Below, piece by piece: positions 46,095 through 64,000 of a stretch of DNA of 64,000 nt. Every line of letters starts with the position of its first letter. The first letter of the stretch is position 1. The stretch is from an uncultured Chloroflexia bacterium. GTDB taxonomy: Bacteria > Chloroflexota > Limnocylindria > Limnocylindrales > CSP1-4. The notes beneath the pieces are model-generated. The model searched no databases. It was not told where the DNA came from and saw only the letters and a list, made by a program, of their open reading frames with translations. The DNA lies in assembly GCA_963746845.1 (NCBI GenBank), contig CAVVCZ010000002.1, positions 32,001-96,000 on the forward strand, in the 5' to 3' direction. Position numbers and translations under genes: made by a program.

Positions 46095-46139
46095 TGGAGC
46101 CGACGCTCGGATTTGAACCGAGGACCTGCTGCCTACGAA
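46095..46139 (-). repeat. Displaced 3' half of tRNA-Thr(CGT) (att-like direct repeat)
   Basis: TGGAGCCGACgCTCGGATTTGAACCGAGGACCTGCTGccTACGAA matches 51629-51673 with 3 mismatches. Confidence 0.9.
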
Positions 46140-46351
46140 GTCGTTCGGCCTAAGCGTTGTGGCCGAGCGTGGAATCGCCGCGTCGAGCCGGGGTCGAGAT
46201 CACCATCGGTTGTTTCCGATCTGCGCAGTCCGGGATCGTCGCGTTGCGCCGCTTGCATCCCCATGTCGTGCTGCGTCTGTGCGCGTAAGCCAGCGAGGGC
46301 GCCTCGCCATGGGACCCGGATTCTGGCCGGACTCGGACGTAGACTGCGCCG

Positions 46352-49300
46352 ATGCCGAGCTGTCCGCAGGTGGCCGTGAGCGACCGGGGCAATTCCCCCG
46401 CTGCGGCTACTGCGGCGAGCGGTTCGCCGATGTCGCCCCGATGCCGGATGTCAGCCGCACGGTCACCTTCCTCACTTCCGATCTGCAGGGCTCAACGGCG
46501 CTCGCCGAGCGGCTCGATCCGGAGACCCTGCGGGAGGTCCTCGACCTCTACTTCGACGACATGCGAGCCGTCTTCGAATTGCGCGGCGCGATCATCGAGA
46601 AGATCATCGGCGATGCCATCCTGGCCGTCTTCGGGCTGAGCGGCTCGCGCGGGGATCACGCCCTTCAGGCCGTCCGAGCGGCGGCCGAAGGCCAGGCGGC
46701 CCAGCAGGCCTTGAACGCGCGACTCGAGGCCCGCTGGGGGGTCCAGCTCGTGGTTCGGACCGGGATCGCCACCGGCCCGCTGGTCGTCAGAGCAGCCAGC
46801 GCCGACGAGCATATCCTGACCGGCGACGTCATTCAGCGCTCTGGCCGGCTCGAGCAGTCGGCGCCGCCCCACGAGGTGCTCCTGGACGAGCCCACGCATG
46901 CGGCCGCCACCGCGCTCGCGACCATCGCGGCCGAGCCGTTCGTCGCGAGACCGAAGACCGCCGCGGCCTCGTCACACGATGCGGCCTTGCCAATCTCGGC
47001 GTTCCGGCTTGTCTCGGTCGATCCGGAACGTGCAGGTCCACCCGGCTCCGCGCCGACCGAGGCAGTCGGCGTCCAGACCTGCCGGAACTGCGGAACGGCG
47101 AACCCCGACGACTTCCGCCTGTGCGGTGGGTGCGGCGGCCAGCTCGGCGTCGCGCATGTCGCGGAGATGAGGAAGACGGTGACCATCGTTTTCGCCTTTC
47201 TGGACGCCCGCGACCTGGCCGGTGAGCCGCTGACCGCAGACGTCCAGCGCGACGTCATGGCGCGTGCATTCGACGCGTCACGCATCGCTCTCGCCCGTCA
47301 CGGCGGCACGATCGAGAAGTTCATCGGCGATGCCGTGATGGCCGTCTTCGGCCTGCCCGTCCGCCACGAGGACGATGCGTTGCGCGCCGTCCGCGCCGCC
47401 CTGGACATGCGCGCGGGCCTGTCGGTCCTGGCCACCGAGCTGGCGCAGGAATCGGCGATCGACTTCGAAGTTGCGATCGGCGTCAACACCGGTGAGGTCA
47501 TCACGGGCGAAGCGAGCCTCGGCCAGCGCCTCGTGACCGGTGACGCCGTCAACGTCGCGGCGCGCCTCGAACAGGCCGCCGCCCCCGGGGAGATTCTCAT
47601 CGGCGACCTGACCGCGAGGCTGGTACGCGAGACCGCGAGACTCGAACAGGTCGAATTGCTCACGCTCAAGGGCAAATCGCAACCCGTCCCCGCTCATCGA
47701 CTCATGGGCGTCCTGGGCGCATCGATCGCCGCCATTCGACCCGCGACTGCCATGGTCGGACGCGAGACCGAGATGCGGCTCCTGACGGATGCGCTCGATG
47801 GGGCCATCGAAACACGTGGCTGTCGCATCGTCACCCTCATCGGTGACGCCGGCGTCGGCAAGACGCGCCTCTCGAAGGAGTTCCTCGAATCTGCCCGAGC
47901 TCATGCCACGATCGTGAGCGGGCGCTGCCTTCCGTATGGCGACGGCATCACCTTCTGGCCCGTCGTCGAGGTCGTCCAGGGCGCCGCGGGCCTGCTCGAT
48001 TCGGACACGCCGGCCAAGGCCATCCGGAAGCTTCGGCGCATCCTCGGTGACAAAGAGGTGGTCGATCGGATCGCGGCGGCCGTCGGCTTGCGCGATGCGC
48101 CGTTCCAGGTCGGCGAGCTCTTCTGGGGGATCCGCCGGTTTCTGGAGATCCTCGCCGCCGGCAAACCGCTGGTGGTTCTGTTCGACGACATCCAGTGGGC
48201 CGAACCGACGTTTCTCGACCTGCTTGGCCACCTGACCGCGAACGTGCGCGACGAGCCGATCCTGCTCTTGTGCATGGCCCGCCATGCGCTTCTGGAGAAG
48301 CAGCCGACGTGGGGCCAGGGGCCGGACGAACGAACCATCGTCCTGTCGCCGCTGTCAGACGCGGATGCTGCGCGCGTGACGGCGAACCTCCTCGGCAAGG
48401 TCGGACTGGCGGATGCGGTTCAGGACCGGGTCGTCGCCGCTGCCGAGGGCAACCCGCTGTTCGTCGAGCAGCTCGTCTCGATGCTCCAGGAAACCGGCAT
48501 GCTGCGGCTCATCGAGGGTCGGTGGGAGCCAGCCGGCGACCTGTCCACGCTGGCCATCCCACCGACCATCCACGCGCTGCTGGCAGCCCGCCTCGACCAG
48601 CTGCCGGAGGGCGAGCGGGCAACCGTCGATCCCGCCTCGGTCATCGGCCTGGTCTTCCCGCAGGTCGCGCTGCAGGCGATCGTCGATGACGACGTCCGCG
48701 ACCAGGTCCCGGAGCGCCTCGACGAGCTCACCACGCGGCAGCTGGTGCGCCCGACGGACCCGGCCGACAGCGAGAACGACGAGTACCGCTTCACCCATTT
48801 GATGATCCGGGACGCGACCTACGCAGGACTCCTGAAGCGCACGAGGGCGCGCCTCCACGAGCGGTTCGTGGCGTGGGCCGACGAGGCCAATCGGGCGACC
48901 GAGCGCGTGACCGAGTTCGAGGAGATCCTCGGCTACCACCTCGAGCAGGCGCATCGCTACCTCTTCGAGCTTGGCCCGCTCGACGAGCACGGGTCGGCCA
49001 TCGGCATCGACGCGTCCGGGCGCCTGGCCTCCGCCGGCCAGCGGGCCTTCGTGCGTGGTGACATGCCGGCCACCGCGAATCTCGTCCGCCGCGCGGTCGA
49101 CCTGCTGCCGGACGATCACGCGGCGAGGCCGAATCTGTTGTTCCAGCTCGGGCTGGCGCTCTGGGAAGTCGGCGAGGGCGAGGCAGCGGACGCCGCCTGC
49201 GCCGGGGCGATCGAGGGCGCGTCGCGGCTGGGAGACGTGGGGCTCGAGACGACCGCCCGGCTGGAGCGCGTCATGAACCAGTACTACGCCGATCCTTCCA

Positions 49301-50277
49301 AAGTCGAGGGCGACATCGAGGCGCAGATCCGCCAGAGCATCGCCATCCTCGAGCGCCTGGGCGACGACGCCGGTCTCGCGCGGGCCTGGCTGTCGATGAG
49401 CGGGGTGCGTATCGTCGGCACCCGCTGGGGCGAGGCCGCAGAGGCAGTCGAGCGGGTCATCGGACACGCGCAGAAGGCGGGCGACCGCGTGCTCGAGATC
49501 CGGGCCGGCCCGAACCTGGCGATGTGCGCGCAGTTCGGTCCGACGCCCGTCCCGGAAGCGATCCGGCTGTGCGAGGAGATCATCGCTCGCTCGACCGGCG
49601 ACCAGAAGGCCGAGGCGGTGACGCTGCGCAGCCTCGCCCACCTCCACGCCAAGCGCGGCGAGTTCGACATTGCCCGCGACGAATATCGGCGGGCGCGTCG
49701 AACGCTCGAGGAGCTCGGCTGGAAGTTCCATGCCGCCCTCACCTCGATCGACTCAGGCCCCATCGAGATGCTGGCCGGCGATCCGGTTGCGGCCGAGGCG
49801 GAGTTGCGACACGACTACGAGGCGCTCGATCGGCTCGGCGACCGCAACTACATCTCGACGGTGGCCGCCTACCTCGCCGAGGCCCTCTGCCAGCAGGGCC
49901 GGTTCGACGACGCGTCCACGATGGCGTCGTTCAGCGCCGATGTCGCAGCGCCCGACGACGTGTATACACAGGTCGCGCTTCGGCGTGTTCGGGGCAAAGT
50001 GCACTCCTGGCTCCGTCGGCACGATGCGGCTGAAGCCGCGTGTCGCGAAGCCGTCGACCTGAGCCGGACCGAGGATGATCCGACGGACCAGGCCAATGCG
50101 CTGTCGGACCTCGCGCTCGTCCTGCGCGCCGCCGGCCGGGATGCAGAGGCGATTGCAGCCGGGACCGAGGCACTGGCGCTGTATGAGCGCAAGGGCAACG
50201 TCGTTTCAGCGGCCCGAACCCGGCAATCCCTCGCAGCCGCCGTCGAGGAGACGGCGCTGACGAGCGACCGTCGCTGA
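46352..50277 (+). CDS. Tandem (Zn-ribbon + class III cyclase)x2 - STAND/AAA ATPase - TPR protein; -1 frameshift at about 46370
   Basis: MPSCPQ/[C]GRE..RCGYCG; EKIIGDA; CRNCG..LCGGCG; EKFIGDAV; GDAVNVAARLE; GDAGVGKTR; FDDIQWA; AEGNPLF. Confidence 0.88.
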
Positions 50278-50283
50278 CATGAG

Positions 50284-50311
50284 ACAGCGCGCCCGTGGCC
50301 GGGCGCGCTGT
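50284..50311. terminator. Hairpin between convergent genes
   Basis: ACAGCGCGCCCG-TGGC-CGGGCGCGCTGT. Confidence 0.65.
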
Positions 50312-50352
50312 GTCTGATGAAGATGGATCCCGCGCGGGGCGGGAAGCAGCAC

Positions 50353-51298
50353 CTACCGCGGATAGCCGGCCGGGTCGAACGTGCCCGGAGGGGCCAGGAC
50401 CCCGAAGAACCCGACGTTGTGCTGGCCGGACTTCTTGAAGAGCACGCACGGCCCGGTCGCGTTCTTGCCGCAGGCCGGGAGCAGCCCGGTGAAGGGAGTC
50501 CCGTCAGCCAGGAAACCGTCCCAGCAGACGTTGAACTGCCCGATGCCCTTGTTCACGAGATTGGACGCGAGCGCAAAGATGATCGTCTTCGGACCGGAGG
50601 CAGTGGTGTTGTGGAACGTCAACACGCCGTTCGAATCGAGCGGAGGGCCTCCGCAGGCGGTCGTCATGGCCGGAATGGCGGGCCCGAAGCCAACACCTGT
50701 GAACGTTCCATCGTCAGAGAACAGGGTCGCGGCTGTAGAGGAACCGTTGAAGACCTGCGTGCACACCACATTGTCCGGACAAGGGGCGATGGGTTGCGTC
50801 TGCGGGATGAAGTCGGCCGTGAAGAAAGTCTCGCCGTCTTCGTAGCTGCACGTTGCGGTGGACGGGGCGCTGGCTTCCAGCTTGTAGAAGCTTGGCGTCC
50901 GTGACGCTGATGTTGAACGTCGCGATGCTCTTCGACGCCTTGGCCGTGTAGGAAGCGCAGGATCGAGGACTCCTCACCGTCGCTCCTGAAGACGTCGAGC
51001 GTCACCGTGGTCCGCGAACACGGATCGGAGCTCGGCAGGATCGTGTTTCCTTCACCACCGCTATGATGGCGACCTGGACGGAGAACGTCTGAAAGGTCAT
51101 CACCGTGTCCGGCGCTGTGATGACCAGGTTGCACTCGGCCGGGCCCTCGCCCTCGCCCTCGCCTACGTAAGCAAGACACGCCGAGGACGCCGAAGCGGCG
51201 TTGGCGATACCGCCGATCGGGATGAGCACGGTTGCGGCCAATGCAAGGGTCACCGCCGCAGCGGACATGCCGCGGCGAACGCGCGAGACTGTGTGCAT
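50353..51298 (-). pseudogene. Secreted Cys-containing beta-rich protein, broken by at least 3 frameshifts
   Basis: GAGGAGG RBS and signal peptide (ANA-A); coding segments continue across frames to PAGYPR*. Confidence 0.55.
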
Positions 51299-51628
51299 CG
51301 ACACCCTCCTCGATACCGATCCATGGCGGCCTGCCACCGCGAACACAACAGCCAAACCGTCGGACCCAGGGGTTCCGGTATCAGGCCCCAAGGTACTGCG
51401 AATGTGTTGACAGCTGTCACGCCCGCAACAATGGGCGGTGTGTCCACGCACCACATCGAGGAACCGCCGGTGCCGGCCTGATCAAGCGGGACTGCGCAAG
51501 CAGAATGTGTCGCGAGCTCGGATCCGGTCTCCCGTGCGACTTCCTCGGAGAGACCTCAACTCTGCGCTGCGCCAATTCCGATGAACCAGTTCGGTGCGCG
51601 CCCCCGCGGACCAGGTCGCACCGATTCG

Positions 51629-51703
51629 TGGAGCCGACACTCGGATTTGAACCGAGGACCTGCTGTTTACGAAACAGCTGCTCTACCGCTGAGCTATGTC
51701 GGC
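51629..51703 (-). tRNA. tRNA-Thr(CGT), intact with encoded CCA
   Basis: GCCGACATAGCTCAGCGGTAGAGCAGCTGTTTCGTAAACAGCAGGTCCTCGGTTCAAATCCGAGTGTCGGCTCCA folds as a cloverleaf; loop TTCGTAA. Confidence 0.96.
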
Positions 51704-51808
51704 GCCGATCAAGAGTAGCCGATGCTGAGAGGACAGCAGGTGTTTGGCTTCGCCGGAACATGCTCGGGTCGTGCTCAGAGCGGTAGCAGAGCGCTCGAAC
51801 AGCTGATG
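51704..51808. repeat. Arm U copy 1 (tRNA promoter plus conserved motifs)
   Basis: Homologous to 57251-57363; -10-like TACTCT on minus strand (51712-51717); TCGTGCTCAGAGCGGTAGCA and GCTCGAACAGCTGAT shared. Confidence 0.85.
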
Positions 51809-52098
51809 ACCGGCTTCGAAGCGCCGAAGCAGCCGGACATGCTCATTACCCTCGGCTCGCTCGACTCACACCCGCCTTTCAAACGGACGAGTCATGCAGA
51901 TGGCCAGGAGGCGCCGGTGCTCGCGCGGTCGAGGGCGATTTCGGCGGTCCAAGCCGGAAAGGAAGGACTCTACCCTAACCGTCTTCGCGTCCGGGTTTAG
52001 GACCACTCAATTGACGGTGGGATCGATGATGGAGGCACGCCACGCGTAGCGCCGCGGCCCGCCACCCGCCAGTGACTCCGGGCCACGAGGGAGTTTCG

Positions 52099-53400
52099 AT
52101 GACCGACGAGGCGCAACTGACGAGTCCGCGAATCCAACGGCTGCGGCGCGAGATGGAGAGTCGAGGCCCGGCAGCCGTCGATTCGTTCTGGGACGAGGTC
52201 GAAGCCGCGACGACGCCGCTTGTCGAAGCCATCCCCGACGACGACACGGACGTCCTTGTGACTTTCGTTTGGCGCGGAGATTCGGACACGAAGTCCGTTC
52301 GCGTCTGGCATGACGACATGCTCGGGACTACTCCGGCCGAGGCCGCGATGCTCCGGCTCGGCGAGACCAACGTATGGCACAAGACGTTCCGCCTCGCGTC
52401 CGCCCTCCGGTTCGAATACGTCTTCTATCCAAACGATCCTGAGCTGGATGACGAGCCGCTGCCGAGCCCGGAGACGTACGAGGTCGCCCTCCGGCTGGAT
52501 CCGCTTAACCCGAAGCGGTATCTCCTCCCGGACGACGGTGAGCATCCCGAGTGGAACGACTTTTTCGGCGGTTGGTCCAGCTGGGTGAAGCGCGAGCAGT
52601 CGCTCGCGGAGCTGCCGGCGGCGCTTCCCCAGCCCTGGGTGGCAGAGCGCGCCGACGTGGCGAAGGGAATCGTCGACAAGCATCGCTTCGAGAGCGCGAC
52701 TCTCGGCAACACGCGGGCGGTCTACGTCTACACGTCGCCGGGATACGACGCGACCAGCGAATCCACATGGCTCCTCATTCTCTTCGACGCCTGGAGCTAC
52801 CGCGCGATCATCCCGATGCCGACGATCCTCGACAACCTCGTCGCCGATGGTGACATCCCGCCGCTCGCCGCCGTGCTCGTCGACCATCCATCGTTCGACG
52901 AACGGATGCGGGAGCTGTCGTTCGAGGAGCCCGGTCCCGCCTTCGAAACGGCCGTAGCAGACGAGGTCATGCCCTGGATCGGGGAGCGGTACCGCGTTGC
53001 CTCGGACGCGCGACGGGTCATCATCGGTGGTGCCAGCAACGGCGCCGATGCGGCCGCACGGATCGCCGTGGCTCACCCCGAGCTGTTTGGCAACGTGCTC
53101 TCGCAATCGGGGACCTACGGGCGGTCGCCCTCCGGTGACACCGAACCGGAGTGGCTAGCTCGGTGGATTGCCAAATCGCCGCGGCTACCGATCCGGTTCC
53201 ACCTGGAGGCCGGGACGATGGAGAGCGACCCCGGCAGGAGTGGAGTCAGCATTCTCCAGTCGAACCGGCATCTTCGGACGGTCCTCCGCGCTCGCGACTA
53301 CGACGTCCACCTGGTCGAGTTCAGTGGCGGACACCAAATGCTGTGCTGGCAAGGAACCATCCGCGACGCCCTAATGTGGCTCATGTCCGCAGGCACATGA
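52099..53400 (+). CDS. Enterochelin esterase (Fes)-like alpha/beta hydrolase
   Basis: VTFVWRG, LDPLNP, RAVYVYTSPGY, GASNG nucleophile, FSGGH. Confidence 0.85.
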   Translation: MTDEAQLTSPRIQRLRREMESRGPAAVDSFWDEVEAATTPLVEAIPDDDTDVLVTFVWRGDSDTKSVRVWHDDMLGTTPAEAAMLRLGETNVWHKTFRLASALRFEYVFYPNDPELDDEPLPSPETYEVALRLDPLNPKRYLLPDDGEHPEWNDFFGGWSSWVKREQSLAELPAALPQPWVAERADVAKGIVDKHRFESATLGNTRAVYVYTSPGYDATSESTWLLILFDAWSYRAIIPMPTILDNLVADGDIPPLAAVLVDHPSFDERMRELSFEEPGPAFETAVADEVMPWIGERYRVASDARRVIIGGASNGADAAARIAVAHPELFGNVLSQSGTYGRSPSGDTEPEWLARWIAKSPRLPIRFHLEAGTMESDPGRSGVSILQSNRHLRTVLRARDYDVHLVEFSGGHQMLCWQGTIRDALMWLMSAGT

Positions 53401-53591
53401 CGCGCCCATCGGGCTCGCTTCGGAGTGAGGTACGGTGGGGGTCCTCGGTATTCGGTGGTCCGCGTAGCACCGAATTCGCCGGCGACTGTGTCGCGGCCTG
53501 CATTCCCGGATGACAGCGTTGCGGCGATGGCATCGGTATGCGACCGCGCGCGCACACGCCTCACGAACACGGGCGTTTAGTGAGCGGTCTC

Positions 53592-53730
53592 GGTTGTCCA
53601 GGGCCCGGGGTTAGCGCCAGCGGGCCGCAGCGTCGATCCTAGACGGGCACCCCTCGAAACGAACAGCTGATAAGTGTGCCCGTTTCTATCGACCCGGAAC
53701 GCTTGTAGCACTGCGCAGGGGGCGGGAGAC
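53592..53730. repeat. Arm D copy 1
   Basis: Homologous to 59809-59948: GCGTCGATCCT, GCTGATAAGTGTGCCCGT, GTAGCACTGCGCA, GGGCGGGAGAC. Confidence 0.85.
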
Positions 53731-53772
53731 TTACGAAACAGCTGCTCTACCGCTGAGCTATGTCGGCGCCGA
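53731..53772 (-). repeat. Displaced 5' half of tRNA-Thr(CGT), ending at the anticodon loop
   Basis: TTACGAAACAGCTGCTCTACCGCTGAGCTATGTCGGCGCCGA identical to 51667-51708. Confidence 0.92.
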
Positions 53773-54214
53773 CAAGGAGGAGAGGCCCGTCCCGCAGGTC
53801 ATCCACACTGAGCCCGACTTCGCCGCCGCGCTCGAGCCATCGGAGTCGTGGATGCTGGACACGCTCGTCGTCCAGACGCACGCGGTTCTCGAGCGGACAC
53901 GCGAGATCTTCGAGCATTCGATGCCGGCGGACACTGCTGTCGAACCACGTCTGGCGGGCAAGCCGTTCACGTTCGACCCAGCCGTGGCGGAACCGTGCCC
54001 CGCGCCGACCCTGTTCGTCATGGGTCGGCAGGACCGTTACGTCGGATACAAGAGGGCCTGGTCGATCCTGGACGACTTCCCGCGCGCGACGTACGCGGTG
54101 CTGGATCGGGCCGGCCACCTGCTCGATGTCGAGCAGTTCACGCTCCAGCACGCGCTGGTGAACGAGTGGCTCGATCGGGTCGAGGAGTCCGTCGCGGAGG
54201 CTATTCCGGCCTAG
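53771..54214 (+). pseudogene. C-terminal half of an alpha/beta hydrolase
   Basis: PTLFVMGRQDRYVG...LDRAGH; no nucleophile elbow; frame abuts tRNA-half copy. Confidence 0.7.
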
Positions 54215-54263
54215 GCGATCCGATCCGGCGTCATCGTCCCGTCGGTGACCCTGAGCCGTCCGG

Positions 54264-56694
54264 TCAGTCCAGCCCGGCGTTGCGGGCCATTACGGCGATC
54301 TCGACGCGCGTTCGCGCGCCGAGCTTCGACTTGATGTTGGCGACGTGGGTCGACGCCGTCTTCTTGCTGATGACGAATGACTCCGCGATCTCGCCGTCCG
54401 ACATCCCGGAGGCAACGAGCGCGATGACCTCGACCTCGCGCGGCGTGAGGTCGAATCGACCGATCGAGGGCCTCGCCACGGGCGGTCGGTCTTCGAGATC
54501 GACAGAATCGACCTCGGTCATGGCGAGATCAAGAGCCTCTTCGAGGCCCCGCGCCTCTCCGATCACCCAGTGCCGATGAAACCGGACCGGACCGAGCGCC
54601 TTCTGGGCGCTCGCGTAACCGGGCTCGATCTTGTCCTTCGCGAAGGGCGGCGACATGTGCGCTCGAGCTCGCTCAATGGCCGCCCAGCTTTCGACCGCCA
54701 CGTGCATCTGCCCGGCGGGCTCAAGCCATTCCGCTGCCGTCGATCAGCGCAAGAACGCGCTCCCGATTGTTGCCTGATGTGGCCGACGATGTCGACGCCA
54801 TCGCGAAGATGCATTCGCGCCACCGCCAGGTCGCCCGCCTGGGCCATCGTCCGAGCCATGGCGAACGTCGACCATGAAACGAGGGCCTTATCGCCTGTCT
54901 CGCTGAAGATCCTCTCGCTTTCGGTGAGTGATTTCATCGCCGCGCCATAGTCGCCGAGGGAACGGTCCAGGAATCCCAGCTGGAGCAGCGCGTACGCCAA
55001 CGCCCACGCGTCCTCCGCCGTCGCGCGCGACGCGGATGGCGTCGTCGAAGCACGTCCGGGCCAGCACAAGCTCGCCGCGGCGGCGGGCGATCTCCCCTTG
55101 CGTGACGCGGATAGCGACCAGCGGCCCCGCAACGCCGGCCCGGAGCGCATGCACCTTCGCCTCATCCAGCCGGGCCGCGATCTGGTCGAAGTCCACAGTC
55201 GCGTCGTCGAGGGCGACGCGGACGAGCCAATGCATCGCCTCGGCCATCCCGAGCTCGTCCAGACACTCGGTTGCTGCGAGCCAGGCTCGCCTCGAACATG
55301 GCGAGGCTGCGCTCCCGGAGCCCCAGCTCTCTGGCCATACAACCCGCCCGACTGAGCAGCCGGGCCCGAATTGCTGGCCGCGCTTTGGGTCCAACATCAC
55401 GCGCCGTCTCGAGCCAAGACAGGCCTTCGCGGATCCCGCCTGCGCTGTACCAGAATCGGTCCTCGAGCGCCGCAGCGAGCCGGGCAAGGGAGTCGGCGTC
55501 TCCCGTCCCGTGGGCCCAGGCAAGGGCCGCTCGCAGGTTCGCCTGATCGGCGACGAGCTGGCGCATTCGCGGGATCTGCTCCGCCGCGCGCGTCGATCGA
55601 TCCGCGTCCTCCGCCATCGCCAGGAAGTACGCGAGGTGACGGTCGCGAACGACCTTCGTCCTCACCGGGCTCAACCGGTCGAGGGCGAACTCCCGGATGG
55701 TTTCGAGCAACCCGAATCGCGGTTCCCCATCGGGACCGGGCCGGACGGTCACGAGGCTGTGGTCGACCATGCGCTCGAGCATCGACATCGGCGTCGGCGC
55801 CCCGTGTGTCCGCCGGCCATCGGCAACGACCGCCTCGCAGGCCGCGAGGGTGAATCCACCGACGAAGACGCCGAGGGCCGCAAAGAACTGCTGCTCCAGG
55901 CTGCCGAGGAGCTTGACGCTCCACTCGATCGTGGCGCGGACGGTCTGTTGTCGGAGCGGGACGTCGAGCGGCCCATCGCTCAGCAGCGGAAGCAGCGGCT
56001 GGAGCTGGACAAGCAGGGAGGCCGGCGACCGGGACCGGGTGCGCGCGGCCGCGAGCTCGATGGCGAGCGGAAGACCGTCGAGGCGGACGCAGATCTCGGA
56101 GATCGCGCGGGCGTTCTCGTCAGTGAATGCGAAGCGCGGATCCATCGACCGCGCTCGCTCCACGAACAGGCGGACGGCGTCGACCTGTTCCAGCCGGCCG
56201 AGCGATCCCAGGTCCTCATCGCGCGGTAGCGCCATCGAACCGAGTCGGTACAGCTGCTCACCCTGGACGTGGAGAGCCGCACGGCTCGTCGCGAGGACGA
56301 TCAGGGTCGGCCAGCGCGTCATCAGTCGGGCGATGATCGGGGCTGCCGCCGGAAGCTGCTCGAGGTTGTCGAGAATCAGGCGAATCCGTCGGTGACCAAA
56401 CTGCTCGGGAAGCGTTTCGCTCAGGTCGCCCTCAACCGGCTCCCCGACACCCAGAGCCGTCGCGATCGTCGCCAGAATCAAGTCTGGGTCTGTGATTGGG
56501 GCGAGGTCAACGAAGACGAACCCAGCGTCGTCGTCGGACTGGTTCGCGGCGAGTTCGATCGCCAGGCGTGTCTTGCCGCTGCCACCGGGCCCGGTCACCG
56601 TGACGAGACGACCGGTATTGAGCAGTCCGGCCAGGGCGACGAGATCCAGGTCGCGTCCGATGAAGGACGACACGGGCGAGGGGAGGCCGTTCAT
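54264..56694 (-). pseudogene. ATPase (NB-ARC-like)-TPR-LuxR transcriptional regulator, several frameshifts
   Basis: SFIGR, GPGGSGKTRLA, LDNLEQ, LDGLPLAIELAAAR, LLETIREFA; C-terminal LTPREVEV...KTASTHV. Confidence 0.8.
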
Positions 56695-56965
56695 CCTGAC
56701 CAGGCTGGCCCAGTGCTCGGTCCTGGCTCGATCGTTCCAACCCGCATTGCTCCGTCCACTGCGTTTGGAGTCTACGCTCGCCTGCGGTCGGCCTCCGGAG
56801 CCGAAGTTCGCAGGTCCGAATCGAGTCGGGCACGCCATGCTGCGTCGGCTCCGAGGTCCAACGACGAGCGAGGTACCGCGACACCCCGGTTCGTCAACAT
56901 GACGGAGCATTGCTGCCATCGATGCGATGTACGCGAGGCGGTGACACCCACACGGGGACGGCCAC

Positions 56966-57182
56966 TTCCCCAACCGGGCCAGCCTCATCCGACTTGTCGG
57001 AATGGTCCTCGCCGAGCAGGACGATGAGTGGCAGGACGGCCGGCGCTACTTCCGGCCCGAGACGATGGCCCTCATCGACGGCGCCATCGATCACGAGGAG
57101 GTGAGCCCAGGGTTGCTGATGGCGAGCTGATCGACCAGGCTCGAGGGTGACGCCCTGTTACACCACGTCCCGGGACTTGACC
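56966..57182 (+). mobile_element. IS256-family remnant (transposase C-terminus and right end)
   Basis: FPNRASLIRLVGMVLAEQDDEWQDGRRYF...* followed by TTACACCACGTCCCGGGACTTGACC, like IS256 right IR. Confidence 0.8.
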
Positions 57183-57217
57183 CATAGTCATCAGCTCTAC
57201 CGAGCATGCGAACGTCG

Positions 57218-57250
57218 GAAACAGCTGCTCTACCGCTGAGCTATGTCGGC
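57218..57250 (-). repeat. Displaced 5' half of tRNA-Thr(CGT), slightly shortened
   Basis: GAAACAGCTGCTCTACCGCTGAGCTATGTCGGC identical to 51671-51703. Confidence 0.92.
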
Positions 57251-57363
57251 GCCGATCAAGGATAGCCGATGCTCAACGCACAGCGGCTGTTCGCCCTCAC
57301 GGGAGCATGCCGGCGATCGTGCTCAGAGCGGTAGCACAGCTGCTCGAACAGCTGATAAGTGTG
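57251..57363. repeat. Arm U copy 2
   Basis: GCCGATCAAG..TAGCCGATGCT; -10-like TATCCT on minus strand; TCGTGCTCAGAGCGGTAGCA; GAACAGCTGATAAGTGTG. Confidence 0.85.
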
Positions 57364-57431
57364 TCTACGCCGATGACTGTCGGGCACCCTTGAGAGGTCC
57401 CGAACCGCACGACCGTTCGATCTAGGCGCAA

Positions 57432-57827
57432 TCAGCGCGGGGCGACGGCGGCCAGCCCGATGAGCGCCGCCCCCTCGATCATCCGATCGTCGTAGGTCAC
57501 GATCGTGTCGAGGTCGTCACCTAGCGTCAGAGCGGTCGCGAGATGGATGGCATCGAGCGTGCGCAGTATTCGAGGCTCGAGGATGCCGGCCGCATCGAGG
57601 ATCCGATCGTCGATGGCGATCAGGTCGACACGCCGAAGGCCCTCGCGGGCGATGGCGAGAGCGTCAGGCCCCAGGTGGCGGACCGCTCGGAGGGCTTCGG
57701 CCCGGAGGAGGGAAGACGACACGCGGCGAGCCTCGTGCGTCGCGAGGAATGCTCGGAGCTCGGTCGACTGCGCCTCGGTGACGACCAGCTTGACGAACGC
57801 CGAGCTATCGAGATAGACGGCCTTCAA
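57432..57827 (-). CDS. vapC: VapC family PIN-domain toxin
   Basis: YLDSSAFVKL, E, LRTLDAIHLATA, TYD. Confidence 0.9.
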   Translation of the reverse strand: MKAVYLDSSAFVKLVVTEAQSTELRAFLATHEARRVSSSLLRAEALRAVRHLGPDALAIAREGLRRVDLIAIDDRILDAAGILEPRILRTLDAIHLATALTLGDDLDTIVTYDDRMIEGAALIGLAAVAPR

Positions 57828-58096
57828 TCCGTCCGCGCCTTCGACACGAGGTCGGACGGAGCGGGTGAATCGGCCGGCAGCTGGACCGTGGGGAGGTCGA
57901 GCAGGTCAGCCTCGGCGCGACGCAGCAGTCCTTCGCGCTCGAGCTTGGCCAGACCGGTTGGCATCGATCGCAGCAGGACCGCGACCGGACGTCCTCGATC
58001 AGTGACCTCGATCGTCTCGCCCGCGGCGACTCTTCGCAGGATGGCACTGGCCTGACGCCGAAGCTCGCGCACACCGACACGTTCCATGTGCGACAT
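57824..58096 (-). CDS. vapB: Phd/YefM-type antitoxin
   Basis: VGVRELRRQASAILRRVAAGETIEVTDRGRPVA; 4-nt overlap with toxin. Confidence 0.88.
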   Translation of the reverse strand: MSHMERVGVRELRRQASAILRRVAAGETIEVTDRGRPVAVLLRSMPTGLAKLEREGLLRRAEADLLDLPTVQLPADSPAPSDLVSKARTD

Positions 58097-58213
58097 AGTA
58101 GCACTTGTCAGGACGACGTGGCGTAAGCGGGTGTCACTCCGGAGACCCCAATCCTTCCGGGGGGAGCACGGGCTCCCCCTCGGATTGAAGCGTGCCTTGC
58201 GTCGTGTGGCCGA

Positions 58214-59176
58214 TCAGGGAGACGGGGACGCGCCCGATGGGGACGGACTGGTTGCCGGCGGTTCGATCTTGATGGAAGCGACGATGGCCTCGAGCTCGGC
58301 CAGCTCCTCGGCAGAGCTGCTCGCCTGATGCCTGGCAACGACGGCGAAGCGATCGCCGGCGACGTCGACGACATAGACGACATCGGTCGAACCGACGGCA
58401 CTGCAGCACAGGCCGCCGGACTCATCCGGGCCCGGGTCCGGCCAGAACCTGATGATTCCCCCGTCGCATTTCGTGACATCGAGGTCGGCCGGGACGGTCA
58501 ACTCGATCCGCTTGGCCGGGAAGCCCCCCAGGGTGACGTCGGTGGCGGCCGACGCGACCCGGCCCTTCTGCGCCACCAGCAAGCTCGCAAGCTCATCGAT
58601 CGTCGTTCCGGCGTCGACCAGCGTCGCATCGTGATGGCAGGCGTCGGTGTAGACATGAGTGACGGTCCAGATAGCGAGTAGGACCTCGCCAGATCCAGTG
58701 AACGGCGGCATGCTCGCCGCAGCGGCCACGCGATTCCTATAGACGAATACTCCTCCCTCAGCCGTCGCCCATCCCTCGGGTACGGTGACGGTGAACCGCG
58801 CTCCCCCCACGGGCGTGTAGTACGCAATCCAATCATACGTCCCCGGTTCGAGGGCGCCAGCCGCGGGGAGGAGCGACGGTGACGGGCTCGGCGCGAGAGT
58901 GGCCGACGGCGCCGGCGTCGGGCCGGAGCCGGGGCCGGTGCCCGGTGTGAAGACGGTCAGGGCCGCGAAGCCGACGATCGCGACGACCGCGATCCCGGCG
59001 GCGAGCCGCAGCGGAACGGACATTGGTGGGGTCCTCCACGGGATCCGGAGATCCCGCGATTGTGGTGTCGTCTTGATGGCCAGGAAGACGGCGTCGACCA
59101 CCGGCCGAGGGGTCCGGTCGGACCCGTCTGCCAGCCAGTCGTCCACGGCGCGTTCGAAGGCTCGGTCGTCGCTCAT
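58214..59176 (-). CDS. Putative anti-sigma factor with 1 TM and PGTY...ASI extracellular domain
   Basis: ATGA coupling; DRAFERAVDDWL; TM; PSPSP linker; GALEPGTY; LEAIVASIKI. Confidence 0.75.
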   Translation of the reverse strand: MSDDRAFERAVDDWLADGSDRTPRPVVDAVFLAIKTTPQSRDLRIPWRTPPMSVPLRLAAGIAVVAIVGFAALTVFTPGTGPGSGPTPAPSATLAPSPSPSLLPAAGALEPGTYDWIAYYTPVGGARFTVTVPEGWATAEGGVFVYRNRVAAAASMPPFTGSGEVLLAIWTVTHVYTDACHHDATLVDAGTTIDELASLLVAQKGRVASAATDVTLGGFPAKRIELTVPADLDVTKCDGGIIRFWPDPGPDESGGLCCSAVGSTDVVYVVDVAGDRFAVVARHQASSSAEELAELEAIVASIKIEPPATSPSPSGASPSP

Positions 59177-59727
59177 GACAGTCGCCCTTCCTGGACCTTG
59201 ATCGGCGCCCGGCCCGCCTCGAAAGCGGACCGAAGTGCGCGGGTGGCGTAGTGCAGTCGCGAGCGGGCGGTTCCGTCGGGGATGCCGAGCGTCTCGGCCA
59301 CTGCCACGAGGGGCAGGCCCACGTGGTGGTGGAGGACGAACACCGCCCGCTGGTCGAGCGGTAGCCGGCGGAAAGCCTGCTCCAACTCGTCGCGATTGGA
59401 GATCGATTGGTAAGGGTCCACGTCGTCCGCCCGATCGATTGGGAGAACGCGCACGGTCGATGCCCATCTCCGGTTGTGCGGAGCAACCGCGTAGCAAGCG
59501 TTGACGAGGATCCGGTAGGCCCATGCCTCGAAGCGGTCTGGCTCCCGCAGATTCGGCAGCTTCCGCCAAATGGTCACAAGGGCGTTCTGCAGAACGTCCT
59601 CGGCGAGGCCGGGATCGCGCAGGATGCGTCGAGCGATCCCGAACAGCGTGTCGCTGACCTGGTGCACCAGATCCTCGAATGCCGCCTGGTCGCCCGAGCG
59701 CGCCCGCTCGACGAGGTCTCGGTCCAT
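59173..59727 (-). CDS. ECF sigma-70 factor
   Basis: DLVERARSGD, AEDVLQNALVTIWRKLPNLREPDRFEAW, GTARSRLHYA. Confidence 0.92.
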   Translation of the reverse strand: MDRDLVERARSGDQAAFEDLVHQVSDTLFGIARRILRDPGLAEDVLQNALVTIWRKLPNLREPDRFEAWAYRILVNACYAVAPHNRRWASTVRVLPIDRADDVDPYQSISNRDELEQAFRRLPLDQRAVFVLHHHVGLPLVAVAETLGIPDGTARSRLHYATRALRSAFEAGRAPIKVQEGRLS

Positions 59728-59808
59728 GGGTCTCCGGCGATCAGCCGTGGTCGAGACGACCGCGGTCTATCGAGCATGAGGGTACGGAGCGCCGGAATCG
59801 TTCAGTGC

Positions 59809-59948
59809 GGGTAGTCAGGGTCGGCTCGGACGCTAGCGGCCCGGAGCGTCGATCCTGGGCGGACCACCCCAAGAATCGAATAGCTGATAAGTGTGCCCGT
59901 GTGTATCGGGCCGCCACTCGGGGTAGCACTGCGCACAGGGCGGGAGAC
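59809..59948. repeat. Arm D copy 2
   Basis: Homologous to 53592-53730. Confidence 0.85.
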
Positions 59949-59989
59949 TTACGAAACAGCTGCTCTACCGCTGAGCTATGTCGGCGCCG
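59949..59989 (-). repeat. Displaced 5' half of tRNA-Thr(CGT), ending at the anticodon loop
   Basis: TTACGAAACAGCTGCTCTACCGCTGAGCTATGTCGGCGCCG; followed by TAGCCGATG promoter remnant. Confidence 0.92.
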
Positions 59990-60080
59990 CCCACGAATAG
60001 CCGATGGTCACAGACATCCGCCCGACACCGCCCGGTCGCTCGACGCCGGGTGTCGTGCGTCGTTGCCGTCGAGGACGGGC

Positions 60081-60125
60081 TTGACACGGCCCCGACAACG
60101 TCGTATATATCGACCATCGATATAT
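60081..60125 (+). promoter_or_regulatory. Sigma-70 promoter with overlapping probable PadR operator
   Basis: TTGACA-N17-TATATA; inverted repeat ATATATCGA-CCA-TCGATATAT (60105-60125). Confidence 0.7.
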
Positions 60126-60150
60126 CGACGATCGTAAGAGTGGCAACCCG

Positions 60151-60474
60151 ATGGAAGCCAGGATCCCCGAATTCGGACGGTTCACCGAACCGTCCCTGCT
60201 CATCCTCGTCAGCCTGAGTGACGGGCCGAAGCACGGCTACGCCATCATGCAGGACGTCGAGCGGGGCACCGGCCGGCCCATGGGCCCCGGGACGCTGTAC
60301 GCGGCCCTCGTGCGCCTCGAGGAACAGGGCCTGATCGAGGCCTTGACGCCGGAAGAACGACGCCGGCCCTACCGACTGACCGCGGTCGGGGCGACGAACC
60401 TCGCGCAGCAGCTCAGGGATCTCTCGGCCTTCGCCCAACGGGGTCTCAGCCAGCTCGGCGAGCCCGAGCCATGA
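60151..60474 (+). CDS. PadR family regulator
   Basis: LSDGPKHGYAI, GPGTLYAALVRLEEQGLI, RRPYRLT. Confidence 0.92.
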   Translation: MEARIPEFGRFTEPSLLILVSLSDGPKHGYAIMQDVERGTGRPMGPGTLYAALVRLEEQGLIEALTPEERRRPYRLTAVGATNLAQQLRDLSAFAQRGLSQLGEPEP

Positions 60475-61229
60475 GTTCCCTCCTCATCCGTCTCTACCCG
60501 GCCCGCTGGCGCGCCCGGTACGGCGACGAATTCGAGGTCCTCCTCGAAGAGCGGCCGCTCGGACCGTACGACGTGGCGGACATCCTCCTCGGCGCCCTCG
60601 ACGCGCACCTCCGGCTGCGTGGACAGGGAGCCGGCGTTCGTGAAGGAAGGAGTTTCTCCATGTCGCTCCGGATCGGTGGCATCGCCGCAATCGTCGGCGC
60701 TTCTCTGATCGTCATCGTCATCGCCTTGACCGGCGGCCACGCCGAAGCCTCCGAGAATGCCCCCTCGATCGCGCTGCTCGTCGCGTTGGCCGCTTTCCTG
60801 GTGGCGCTCACCGGGATGAGCGCGTTCCAGGCTCGTTCGAATCCGTGGCTTGTCTGGACCGCGTTCGGGTTGACGGCCGTCGGGACGCTTGTCATCTTCA
60901 TCGCGGGCCTCAGGGATCTCGCCGGCCTCGGCCCAACGGATTGGCGGGACGGCCTTCTCCCCATCGGAGCAGTCACTGCGGCCCTTGGCTCGGCGACGTT
61001 CGGGATCGCGACGTACCGCGTATCCGTTCTCTCGCGCAAGGGGGCATTGGCCCTCGCGATCGGCCCGTTGGTCGGGCTCATTGGCGCCATCGCCGTGGGT
61101 CAGGATCTGTGGGGGCTCGGCATGCTCCTCCTCCTCGTCGGGATCGTCGGCTTCCTGGCCGGTTGGTTCACGCTCGGCGTGGCGGCGATTCGTCTGGATC
61201 GAGGATCGTCGGCGCTCAGGTCCGCCTGA
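60471..61229 (+). CDS. PadR-associated membrane protein
   Basis: LYPARWRARYGDEF N-terminus; about 6 TM; ATGA overlap. Confidence 0.78.
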   Translation: MSSLLIRLYPARWRARYGDEFEVLLEERPLGPYDVADILLGALDAHLRLRGQGAGVREGRSFSMSLRIGGIAAIVGASLIVIVIALTGGHAEASENAPSIALLVALAAFLVALTGMSAFQARSNPWLVWTAFGLTAVGTLVIFIAGLRDLAGLGPTDWRDGLLPIGAVTAALGSATFGIATYRVSVLSRKGALALAIGPLVGLIGAIAVGQDLWGLGMLLLLVGIVGFLAGWFTLGVAAIRLDRGSSALRSA

Positions 61230-61302
61230 GGCGCGAAGCTCGAGAAATCCGTAGCCGATCTGAAGGTCGCCGTCAGCCGGCGGGTTCGAACTTGAATGCC
61301 GC

Positions 61303-62625
61303 TCAGCAGGCGCCGGGCTCTTCGCTCTCGGGCGGCGCGCTGTACCCCGGAACTGCATAGTCGTTCCCACTCGAGTCCTGCCAGACGCAGACTTCGTCGA
61401 CGGTTCCGTTCCGCCGCACGTGGAGCTTGGCGGCCACGTGGCTGGCGCTACCGTCCGGGGAGTCACCGCACGCGTAGGTGATGTCCCAGCCGTCGCCCCG
61501 CGCCTTGGGTTCGATCCACGCCAACGCGCCCGGCCCCTGCGTGTCGCTTGCCTGGAACCCACTCAGATACGGATGGGTCTCTGCGACCGCGGCGAGCGCC
61601 TCATCGAGCGAGTCGATCGGCGGTGTGACCTCGTCCTCGATCGGCGGCCGTCCCTTCGACGAAGGATGAAGCCACCCCACATCCGGGGCATAGTCGGTCG
61701 CCACGACCCGGCCGTCGACGATCACGGATGCCCATGCGTAGTAGCGCGCAGGCAGGCGCGCGAGCGTGCGCGCAAGCACTTCTGCGCGACTGGGGCTGCT
61801 ACCCGCAACGTCGCCTCCGCCGCCGAACTCGAGCTGCGCCCCCGCCAGGCCCCGCATCCAGGTCGGTGGGTTGCCGTACGGATGACTTGGGCCCGAGTGA
61901 TGGGACGGTGAACAGGACGGGCCCTTGCTGGCCTCGTTCTGCGCGGCCGGAAAGAGGGCGCCGAAGAAGGTATCGCCGACCATCGGCGTCTTGACGATCC
62001 CCTGCGGGGACTCGAAGTAGTCAAGCGAGTTCAGGACCGATGACTCCGTTCGACCGGTGTGGAGGTCGGTGATCCACGCACGGTGTGGCAACTCCTCGGC
62101 GGGTCCTGGGATGTTGTCCATTCCGAACCGCCGGTCCCCAATACCGTCGCCGTCGTCGTCGACGACGAGTCCGTACGCGATCCACTGCTCGGTCGGATCC
62201 ACCTTCGGCGCCCCGGGGACGGAGACCACCACGGCGTTGTTGTGCCCGAACCCCACCCGGCGGATGTCGACCCACGGGAACGCACCGGACTCGGTGTCGC
62301 CCGTTGGATCCGCGTAGTCCTCGCCTTCAACGGAGATCGGCACGATGGTCGCGGGTTCGGCGGGCTCGGTCCGGACCGGCGCCGGCCAATCCTCCTTCAG
62401 GCTTGCCTGGGTCCAGATCACCGGGGCCGCCGTCGGGCTCGGGCGGGTCGACGCAGCGGCGGACGGCCGGACCACGCTCGGCGCGGCCGCGGTCGAGGCC
62501 TGCGCCTTCGAGGCGGGGTTTGGGGTCTCCGCTTCCTGCCCGGCTGTGCACGCGGTTGTCAGGATCGCGGCAACCACGACCGCAGCGGCCATCGGCGACA
62601 CAGATCGGCTGAACGAGCGCTTCAT
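61303..62625 (-). CDS. Putative lipoprotein of unknown function
   Basis: GGAAGG RBS; lipobox LTTAC; Ala/Pro linker; beta-rich domain. Confidence 0.65.
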   Translation of the reverse strand: MKRSFSRSVSPMAAAVVVAAILTTACTAGQEAETPNPASKAQASTAAAPSVVRPSAAASTRPSPTAAPVIWTQASLKEDWPAPVRTEPAEPATIVPISVEGEDYADPTGDTESGAFPWVDIRRVGFGHNNAVVVSVPGAPKVDPTEQWIAYGLVVDDDGDGIGDRRFGMDNIPGPAEELPHRAWITDLHTGRTESSVLNSLDYFESPQGIVKTPMVGDTFFGALFPAAQNEASKGPSCSPSHHSGPSHPYGNPPTWMRGLAGAQLEFGGGGDVAGSSPSRAEVLARTLARLPARYYAWASVIVDGRVVATDYAPDVGWLHPSSKGRPPIEDEVTPPIDSLDEALAAVAETHPYLSGFQASDTQGPGALAWIEPKARGDGWDITYACGDSPDGSASHVAAKLHVRRNGTVDEVCVWQDSSGNDYAVPGYSAPPESEEPGAC

Positions 62626-62648
62626 GTCCTTCCTTCCACGTGCGGCGG

Positions 62649-63707: not shown

Positions 63708-64000
63708 GCCTCGGCCTCCATCGCCTTCTCGAGCGCGTTGCGGGCGGCATGCAGGCGCCACTTGGCCGTTCCGAGCGGGATGCCGAGCGACCGTGCGATC
63801 TCCGCTACCGGCCGCTCCTCGACGTGGTGGAGGATGAGGATCATCCGGTCCTTCGGCCGCAGGCGGTCGAAGGCACGCCCGATCGCATCGTTGTCGACCA
63901 TCTCGTCCATCTGCGTTCGGCCATGGACGTCCTGCGGCGGCTCCGGCTGTGAGCTCTCCGCGCCGGCGTCGGCCGGCCGAACCCGGACCTCGCGGAGCCG
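63704..64000 (-). CDS. ECF sigma-70 factor (5'-truncated by window edge)
   Basis: Region 4: RAFDRL...EIARSLGIPLGTAKWRLHAAR; frame open to 64000. Confidence 0.85.
   Translation of the reverse strand, partial: RLREVRVRPADAGAESSQPEPPQDVHGRTQMDEMVDNDAIGRAFDRLRPKDRMILILHHVEERPVAEIARSLGIPLGTAKWRLHAARNALEKAMEAEA

Follow-up and report, generated by a model that had tools for sequence, protein, structure and literature searches.

Probable non-autonomous integrative cassettes stacked at the tRNA-Thr(CGT) gene of an uncultured member of the Limnocylindrales

Three described systems come close to the locus treated here. Cis-mobilizable elements (CIMEs), in the account given of those of the ICESt1/ICESt3 type in streptococci, arise by decay of an ICE or IME, keep their att sites, lack genes for integration and transfer, and are expected to move, after accretion, only with the integrase of a functional relative (PMC5704250). 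The main text on the tycheposon islands of Prochlorococcus describes repeated integration beside a specific tRNA gene, in which newcomers push older elements outward and remnants are left behind (10.1101/2020.12.28.424599). By the counts given for the Islander collection, 159 of 3919 islands carry a 5' fragment and 2083 have an anticodon site, the known crossover places being the anticodon loop, the T loop, and the T-stem junction; an integrase is present in each island by definition, and only four tandem arrays are of three or more (PMC4383910). We analyzed a stretch of 64,000 nucleotides (the window, meaning all of positions 32,001 to 96,000 of contig CAVVCZ010000002.1, assembly GCA_963746845.1) from an uncultured soil Chloroflexota bacterium of the order Limnocylindrales, in which a tRNA-Thr(CGT) gene is preceded by copies of its own 5' half and by two conserved arms, U and D. 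We consider it probable that non-autonomous integrative cassettes are stacked here beside tRNA-Thr(CGT) and that a rarer related element supplies the integrase. A cassette, as we propose it, would be a piece of cargo bounded by arm D and arm U, with U running into a copy of tRNA positions 1 to 37 (the core).

As far as CIMEs are described in that account, the cassettes resemble them in having both putative att sites (in the two units of the window numbered 1 and 3, core-D at one end and U-core at the other), in carrying no integration or transfer genes (the latter checked through 29 cargo proteins), and in being lined up one after another where a related integrase-bearing element integrates. 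They differ in forming a family with one conserved 400-bp junction and free cargo, with up to at least eight members per array, on the 5' side of the tRNA gene, and in occurring mostly in genomes where no helper was found. With tycheposons, as set out in the main text, they have in common islands next to a tRNA gene whose elements are separated only by partial tRNA copies. Tycheposons, however, carry their own tyrosine recombinase and hallmark genes of replication or packaging, whereas the cassettes carry none of these, and the tycheposon description consulted mentions no conserved arms with a regular U-core-D order. The layout of Islander entries, in the terms of the published definition, recurs here as an intact tRNA gene and a displaced fragment in the same orientation, with the 5' fragment upstream and the crossover in the anticodon loop, but the units encode no integrase, which that definition requires within the island, and the arrays reach eight or more.

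Half copies of tRNA-Thr(CGT) and their arms

The only tRNA that ARAGORN called in the window was the minus-strand gene for tRNA-Thr(CGT), at 51629-51703, and no second Thr-CGT gene was counted in the whole 3.56-Mb, 12-contig genome (G000). The features of the locus are given below; half copies that lie upstream on the tRNA strand have the higher window coordinates, and G016 is a related genome.

51629 to 51703, minus strand: intact tRNA-Thr(CGT) (ARAGORN; Rfam tRNA, 72.6 bits)
51703 down to 51667, minus strand: core common to every copy, tRNA positions 1 to 37
51704 to 51808, minus strand: arm U of unit 1, adjoining the tRNA on its upstream side, with a TAnnCT box 8 to 9 nt before the tRNA start and the ATCAGCTGTTCGAGC motif
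53592 to 53730, minus strand: arm D of unit 1, beginning at the first base past the anticodon loop
53731 to 53767, minus strand: 5'-half copy 1, tRNA positions 1 to 37, exact; about 8 nt of tRNA leader upstream, without a U arm
57218 to 57250, minus strand: 5'-half copy 2, tRNA positions 1 to 33, with its break inside the anticodon loop
57251 to 57400, minus strand: arm U of unit 3 (to 57363 as first delimited), with 96.7% identity to its counterpart in G016
59809 to 59948, minus strand: arm D of unit 3, with 97.5% identity to its counterpart in G016
59949 to 59985, minus strand: 5'-half copy 3, tRNA positions 1 to 37, exact; about 35 nt of U-like sequence upstream (59986-60020)

A repeat finder placed the 5' half in one family with members at 51641-51714, 53705-53778, 57188-57261, and 59923-59996, whose start-to-start spacings were 2064, 3483, and 2735 nt. 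The three exact 5'-half copies that the original prediction had placed upstream of the tRNA gene, at 53731, 57218, and 59949, were recovered by this finder as well as in the sequence itself, and the ending of two of them exactly at the end of the anticodon loop was confirmed for 53731-53767 and 59949-59985, both of which diverged from the first base past the 7-nt loop. Arms U and D were likewise found by alignment where they had been predicted, at 81 to 86% identity for U and 80 to 86% for D. The two U arms (51704-51807 and 57251-57356) were 81% identical over 106 nt, or 86% over 137 to 139 nt with the half copy included; the two D arms (53615-53730 and 59831-59948) were 80.5% identical over 118 nt, or 86% over 157 to 159 nt with the core included. 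Across genomes the conserved blocks were longer, at about 190 nt for D (22 aligned D arms) and about 170 nt for U (multigenome alignment), than in the window, where D measured 116 to 139 nt between the two copies and U about 105 to 113 nt. Exact repeats of 33 to 37 nt, arms of 100 nt, and recurrence in many genomes together put the repeat structure far beyond chance.

Both arms held a motif of the type (A/C)(G/C)TTATCAGCT(G/A)TTCG, and neither U nor D arms matched any Rfam family. In a consensus fold of 17 D arms the core was paired with the internal D motif; all pairs were invariant, with no covariation, so the fold speaks neither for nor against a structure. Because intact tRNAs sit behind U, the TA..CT box may act as a promoter, and U may thus carry the promoter of the tRNA. 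Right after copy 2, at 57150-57217 on the minus strand, pieces resembling another tRNA were seen by eye, one like a D arm of a tRNA (GCTCGGTAGAGC) and one like a T arm (GGGTCAAGTCCC); ARAGORN called no tRNA at this place.

A fourth, decayed 5'-half copy with a promoter-proximal remnant of U was observed outside the window, at G000:C2:102045-102093 (70045-70093 in window numbering). The block just distal to it (G000:C2:102105-106311) was 89% identical to a block of G016 bounded by a D remnant and a U-core. Taken together, the fourth copy and the matching block extend the array of G000 to at least 18 kb, and its length is probably about 22 kb.

Arrays and cassette exchange among related genomes

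Of 36 other genomes of the genus, at least 10 had D arms (182-nt query consisting of arm D and the core; the tally includes the unpublished genome G010), often several to a contig. The largest array, in G005, had eight half copies and the intact tRNA across 82 kb; three half copies and the tRNA were present in G035, two and the tRNA in G016, and one and the tRNA in G012, and two half copies were found on a short contig of G031. Many of the internal junctions of these arrays were complete U-core-D. Ten genomes of the genus, among them G000, supplied 22 D-type junctions for alignment; in every one of these, identity to the tRNA ended at the last base of the anticodon loop, and it ended at the same base in six junctions from three genomes of a sister family that had a different D arm. 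When all sequence gathered was taken together, the internal D motif was present in 69 of 73 distinct D-type junctions, and 29 of the 67 that had enough room upstream also had the U motif and were thus complete U-core-D. The U motif also stood upstream of 10 of 15 intact tRNAs, so that in most genomes the working tRNA is preceded by an arm of the kind borne by cassettes.

The cargo between the cores was variable. The 18 core-to-core intervals measured in six genomes ranged from 1.7 to 29.9 kb, and the 126 cargo proteins predicted in them fell into 104 similarity clusters, with no gene common to all cassettes (counts made with a simple codon-position gene picker rather than a gene caller; the picker called no genes in the G012 interval). 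A Pfam scan of 29 cargo proteins returned PadR, extracytoplasmic function (ECF) sigma factors, LuxR/AAA regulators, PIN toxins, an esterase, and toxin-antitoxin parts, besides a methyltransferase, dehydrogenases, BBE-type FAD oxidases, a cupredoxin-like protein, and several that matched no family. No mobility gene was among these 29 proteins, conjugation genes having been checked by these scans only. In relatives, then, the arms always flanked 5' halves of tRNA-Thr(CGT) that end at the anticodon loop, with variable cargo, as the original prediction had supposed.

It might be asked whether the repeats are misjoins of a collapsed or duplicated tRNA region, and some assemblies do break at the locus (G069 and G036). 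Against this stand the same architecture within 0.29- to 2.1-Mb contigs of several independent assemblies and in at least 60 named records from different studies, and the uniqueness of the cargo between the copies; we regard the probability of such an artifact as negligible.

Outside the genus, streamlined genomes of the sister family (1.0 to 1.4 Mb; deposited as Limnocylindrus and Aquidulcis) had one or two 5'-half copies, 1.6 to 3.1 kb apart, upstream of tRNA-Thr(CGT) (G043:C98, identical to L071; G056:C2; and G041:C10). In their D arm an ACAGCAG string resembling the 3' anticodon stem of the tRNA returned about 45 nt past the loop. Variant 5' halves of tRNA-Thr(CGT) followed by a related start of D (GCCTC ... 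AGCGCTGTGC) were seen in six further records (L154, L068, L076, L106, L060, and L052), the first of which had three half copies and the tRNA within 6 kb; the depositors labeled them Dehalococcoidia, apart from single ones labeled otherwise. The cassette system may therefore reach beyond the Limnocylindria, as judged from these sequence matches. IMG/VR contained no exact match to the core-D pattern.

Unit 3 provided the clearest comparison between species. From its distal to its proximal core it was 98.9% identical over 2806 nt between G000 and G016, against 71 to 94% identity for the other segments common to both genomes in the 100 kb around the locus. Two species-representative records (L077 and L111) also held it, and among the four genomes it was 98.4 to 99.0% identical over about 2.8 kb, with all four copies distinct. 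The alignments started at the first base of one 5' half and ended in the next, and the sequences outside differed. The place of unit 3 varied: in L111 it was first and adjoined the intact tRNA, in G016 it was second, with one unrelated cassette between, in G000 it was third, with two units between, and in L077 it was internal. In L077 it was followed by another D-type cassette; in G016 and G000 the cargo of that cassette (81% identical) was found on the far side of unit 3. Two more cassettes were common to other pairs of genomes at 97.5 to 98.4% identity. It had been proposed that cassette content and order be compared between strains; between species both varied, with the homology of unit 3 ending at the cores, and on these alignments cassettes appear to move as units.

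Exchange of this kind could in principle proceed without any site-specific step, if the 400-bp U-core-D junctions served as portable homology at which RecA-type recombination, after DNA uptake, swapped, duplicated, or deleted the cargo. The junctions were 75 to 97% alike between cassettes, which is long enough a match between close copies, and a tandem duplicate made in this way would also yield the joint described below for run X2. However, most pairs of arms were just about 80% identical, unit 3 ended at the 37-nt core in four of four genomes and not at points scattered through the neighboring arms, and identity to the tRNA stopped at one fixed base in every copy, that is, also in the sister family with its different D arm. 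One fixed end base in every copy is the mark of a fixed crossover point, and we consider homologous recombination alone a quite improbable explanation.

Recombinases and the source of an integrase

The original prediction held that no recombinase is encoded in any unit or in the window. This was borne out for the two families searched: the contig of the window had no PF00589 (tyrosine recombinase) or PF00239 (serine recombinase) match, other recombinase and transposase families not having been searched. Six-frame searches with PF00589 gave no match on the array contigs of G000, G005, G035, G016, G012, G033, G009, G013, and G031 or on two D-arm contigs of G036, and PF00239 gave none in the five genomes searched. 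With two integrases of the clade described below as tblastn queries, no remnant was found in about 320 kb of arrays at E ≤ 0.1, and no integrase was found in any of 116 8-kb loci retrieved by pattern (E ≤ 1e-10). Elsewhere in G000, a partial tyrosine recombinase frame was noted at G000:C4:295407-295929 (PF00589 positions 69 to 170; open frame of 134 aa), 150 nt downstream of tRNA-Lys(CTT) and on the opposite strand; it is probably a remnant of another tRNA island.

These searches bear on the possibility that the units are ordinary integrase-bearing islands that have lost their integrase and no longer move, their arms being conserved by common descent. Decayed elements arrayed in tandem at tRNA genes are familiar from the accounts of the CIME route (PMC5704250) and of tycheposon remnants (10.1101/2020.12.28.424599). 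In the present array, decay is plain in unit 2 (53768-57217, between copies 1 and 2) and in the copy at C2:102045, and an integrase of the Thr type is rare among array-bearing genomes. Islands that had lost an integrase are nevertheless hard to reconcile with the failure of tblastn and of PF00589 alike to detect a fragment of one in the arrays. Moreover, at least 15 cassettes whose cargo is unrelated had U arms with one common 170-nt layout and a common outer end, a uniformity that separate deletions would not produce, and unit 3, at about 99% identity in four species against a background of 71 to 94%, had homology that ended at the cores while its position and neighbors differed. We therefore consider it unlikely that the units are relics.

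Just two full-length tyrosine recombinases, about 50 kb apart, were found in each of G000 and G016, and both of those in G000 scored best as XerC/XerD. Only two were also found in three of five streamlined sister-family genomes searched (G056, G041, and G037), which hold half copies. The cassettes might accordingly be Xer-dependent elements for which the anticodon stem-loop of the tRNA substitutes for dif; known elements of this kind (IMEX, pdif modules) are bounded by dif-like XerC/XerD sites of 28 bp. In favor of this, G000, G016, and these three genomes contain half copies yet only two Xer-like tyrosine recombinases, and the clade integrase itself has the two-domain layout of Xer. A dedicated integrase exists, however, with a fixed position at tRNA-Thr(CGT) and with arm motifs in common, and on that account we give use of the host Xer proteins very little credence.

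This integrase, a tyrosine recombinase of 332 aa with Phage_int_SAM and Phage_integrase domains, was encoded on G036:C55, where it started 77 nt upstream of tRNA-Thr(CGT) and was divergent from it. The 77-nt arm between them (U') and the start of the tRNA were 96% identical to the sequence before the tRNA of G035, in which the 5.5-kb cassette ended by U' lacked an integrase and had a normal D arm at its other end; with U' at the tRNA end and D at the other, U' and D belong to one system. Arms U and U' were partly homologous. In another genus of the family, an integrase 96% identical to it was encoded at the end of a contig. Metagenome relatives of at least 88% identity were found at 17 loci; at 15 of these tRNA-Thr(CGT) stood at the same place in the same orientation, and the other two were cut at the gene. 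The question raised by the original prediction, whether any arm adjoins a tyrosine recombinase, thus has a divided answer: none was found in the arrays, and elsewhere a dedicated integrase lies beside tRNA-Thr(CGT), on its 5' side and next to arm U'. From its sequence and position we regard the Xer-like integrase of the G036 type as a candidate helper.

Of 201 genomes of the family, 93 contained a match to the wider integrase clade at E ≤ 1e-20 (a tally that includes G141, G196, and G248). In 60 of 110 clade loci a tRNA lay within 400 nt upstream of the integrase start and was divergent; in 10 it lay upstream on the same strand, 25 had no room for one, and 15 had none. The same-strand layout, which is the usual 3'-side one, includes an integrase of G017 at tRNA-Thr(CGT). 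Three complete integrase-bearing elements of the clade, of 3.1, 7.35, and 8.4 kb, were located at tRNA-Gly(CCC), tRNA-Gly(CCC), and tRNA-Pro(TGG), respectively; each had a displaced 5' half at its far end, with tRNA identity stopping 0 to 2 nt past the anticodon loop, from which it follows that the clade makes 5'-half duplications at the anticodon loop. A motif of the AGTTAT..GCTG type was present in the arm sequence examined of the two Gly-CCC elements (L223 and L246) and was not visible in the flanking sequence examined of the Pro-TGG element (L281). Since the two elements that carry it target Gly-CCC, the arm motif was no longer regarded as a copy of the Thr core.

Besides the integrase, the Thr integrase element (L211:12364-19966; G036:C55, corresponding to L166:8531-14213) was seen to encode an IrrE-like M78 peptidase with a chagasin-type inhibitor domain, a C1 papain-family peptidase, MazG with MazG_C, a 5-hmdU DNA kinase helical-domain protein, a thymidylate kinase, and a ParB_N protein, a set that presumably recalls thymidine hypermodification clusters. 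A query of IMG/VR with the integrase returned two relatives only (L286 and L287; 50 to 54% identity), neither of the Thr type; both are predicted viral contigs, and some members of the clade may thus ride on viruses.

An excised unit 1 was predicted to leave a joint of 53730 to 51667. Parts of 51500-60100 were held by 18 soil and other metagenome runs, none with more than one third of the sampled words, and contigs from four of these (X1 to X4) were placed on 49000-64000, low-depth contigs only, so that neither depth along the region nor gaps in cover can be read. Run X2 contained one contig of 955 nt, at a depth of 4.45, equal to a U1-core-D1 joint: its first 518 letters matched 52184 down to 51667 without a difference, and the remainder matched 53730 down to 53294 with four differences, which amounts to a step back of 2064 with 42 letters that fit either side. 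The predicted joint was thus present in one metagenome contig, a misjoin being possible, and no such joint was found in X1, X3, or X4. The X2 contig is suggestive only, either of the junction of an excised circle of unit 1 or of two tandem copies. X2 may be the sample from which the genome came. In contigs of X2 and X3, which are from different studies, 58991 was joined back to 52192 with five other letters between.

A stack of non-autonomous cassettes could be built as follows. Once a cassette is circular, arms U and D would come together around the core as U-core-D, some 400 bp that resemble an attP. A tyrosine integrase of the Xer-like clade would recombine this sequence with the tRNA gene, with the crossover in the 7-nt loop of the anticodon; junctions already in the array may serve as targets too. 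The incoming cassette would give the tRNA a new upstream region and a new 5' half, and the old 5' half would be pushed outward and left joined to arm D, so that repeated events would produce an array with U-core-D at its internal junctions. Excision between any two cores would release one or several cassettes. The integrase would come from a rarer, larger element of the same family, acting in trans or, after accretion, in cis. We infer that the integrase acts on U-core-D and that cassettes excise as circles. That the units are non-autonomous mobile cassettes, as first proposed, was largely supported by their variable cargo, the lack of a recombinase, and their spread as units, and U-core-D would have the role of attP.

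Several observations weigh against this explanation. Among array-bearing genomes searched, a Thr-specific integrase of the 5' type was found in G036 only (1 of 43 genomes of the genus; E ≤ 1e-60 plus Thr context). A distal end of its element, with a 5' half or D arm, was found neither in 19 kb of G036:C55 or 40 kb of G069:C14 nor in the 10 kb behind the integrase in metagenome contigs L211, L212, and L215; no D arm was present on the whole 84-kb contig of G069, the assembly of which breaks at the locus. Pfam recognized no arm-binding domain in the G036-type integrase. Of the prediction that each unit brings a fresh promoter and 5' half, the new upstream arm before the tRNA stood, and a sigma-70 consensus scan called no promoter in either U arm of the window. 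The break of copy 2 inside the loop fits poorly and suggests a secondary-site event or a later deletion, and the decayed unit 2 is nearer the tRNA than the recently spread unit 3, which misfits a simple order in which the newest is nearest. The X2 joint, finally, is one low-depth contig of short reads that a repeat-driven misjoin or a tandem duplicate would equally give; the word size of the assembler, which we take to be k = 31, is shorter than the 42-nt stretch common to both sides, and X2 had no cover of 49501-51504, the 2 kb downstream of the tRNA.

Window cargo, the 3' side, and biological meaning

The cargo of the units in the window, and the features on the 3' side of the tRNA gene, were as follows.

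52072 to 53400, plus strand: Fes-like esterase of 442 aa, cargo of unit 1 (Pfam Esterase, 4e-17; Enterochelin_N, 2.5e-11)
53768 to 57217, no strand assigned: unit 2, without arms
53852 to 54214, plus strand: open reading frame (ORF) of 120 aa in unit 2, no Pfam match
54264 to 54707 and 55162 to 56988, minus strand: pieces of a broken LuxR/AAA regulator in unit 2 (Pfam GerE and AAA_22/AAA_16; overlapping ORFs in different frames)
57432 to 57827, minus strand: PIN-domain VapC of unit 3 (Pfam PIN, 5.4e-10)
57824 to 58096, minus strand: Phd/YefM-type antitoxin of unit 3 (Pfam PhdYeFM_antitox, 5.9e-9)
59173 to 59727, minus strand: ECF sigma factor of unit 3 (Pfam Sigma70_r2/r4_2)
stop at 58214, minus strand: overlapping ORF downstream of the ECF sigma factor gene, no Pfam family; putative anti-sigma factor by position only
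46095 to 46139, minus strand: displaced 3' half, tRNA positions 31 to 75 with three mismatches, 5.5 kb downstream of the gene
about 46140 to 46200: conserved "X" arm preceding the displaced 3' half

Pfam agreed with the cargo first assigned to units 1 and 3 in the case of the esterase, vapBC, and the ECF sigma factor, and the anti-sigma factor is so named by position, the frame having no family. Unit 2 had been described as a decayed unit that had lost both arms. The broken LuxR/AAA regulator and the absence of arms agreed with this description, and no homologue of unit 2 was found within the array of G016; it may not be a cassette.

Displaced 3' halves (positions 31 to 75, loop included) were found 2.7 to 6 kb downstream of the gene in three genomes, one in G000, two in G005 (array positions 95797 and 98901), and one in G016 (26348), each after a conserved arm. 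A second conserved arm followed the intact tRNA in G005, G016, G035, and G017, and in the last of these it led into an integrase 51% identical to that of G036. The 3' halves, their arms, and the G017 integrase together mark the tRNA gene as an entry point on both sides, with a mirror image of the cassette system on its 3' side.

The original prediction had likened the array to an integron. The likeness is a functional one: cassettes without an integrase are held at one site, the recombination site is regenerated between neighbors, and the cargo is variable and adaptive and shifts in position. None of the features that define an integron was found. The head of the array is a tRNA gene rebuilt by each event, and both attI and a neighboring intI-type integrase are lacking; neighboring cassettes meet in a double-stranded attP-like site of 400 bp, where integrons have attC, an imperfect palindrome of 60 to 120 nt that recombines as a folded single strand; and the cassettes here often hold several genes, in both orientations. 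In a wider reading, which we put forward tentatively and at somewhat less than even weight, the locus would be an integron-like cassette platform on a tRNA gene. Integrase-less U-core-D cassettes would then be the main mobile unit, which would excise as circles, travel between species, and be captured by the Xer-like integrase of a rare helper, and the promoter and 5' half of an essential tRNA would be rewritten at every capture. Such a platform would extend over the order Limnocylindrales, streamlined freshwater plankton included, and other Chloroflexota (related starts of D arms were seen in records labeled Dehalococcoidia), with a mirror-image set of cassettes that use the 3' half on the other side of the gene.

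Limnocylindria are abundant in soils and lakes, and we know of no cultured model for them. In the parts of the full-text literature that treat this lineage together with genomic islands, tRNA, or integrases, we found no published description of their mobile elements. What is new here is a combination, namely, a conserved 400-bp junction, many small cassettes with free cargo, placement 5' of a tRNA gene, arrays that reach eight or more, and a spread over an uncultured order of Chloroflexota. The integrase clade, too, acts mostly on what is the rare side of tRNA genes, the 5' side, by the counts of Islander (159 of 3919 islands; PMC4383910). Elements on that side must carry the upstream region of the tRNA and so take over the expression of an essential gene. 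Island finders that require an integrase in each island will miss these arrays entirely. If the proposed scheme is true, integrase-less arrays at tRNA-Thr(CGT) would add to integrons a second means by which bacteria store small recombinase-free cassettes in order at one chromosomal site and exchange them between species.

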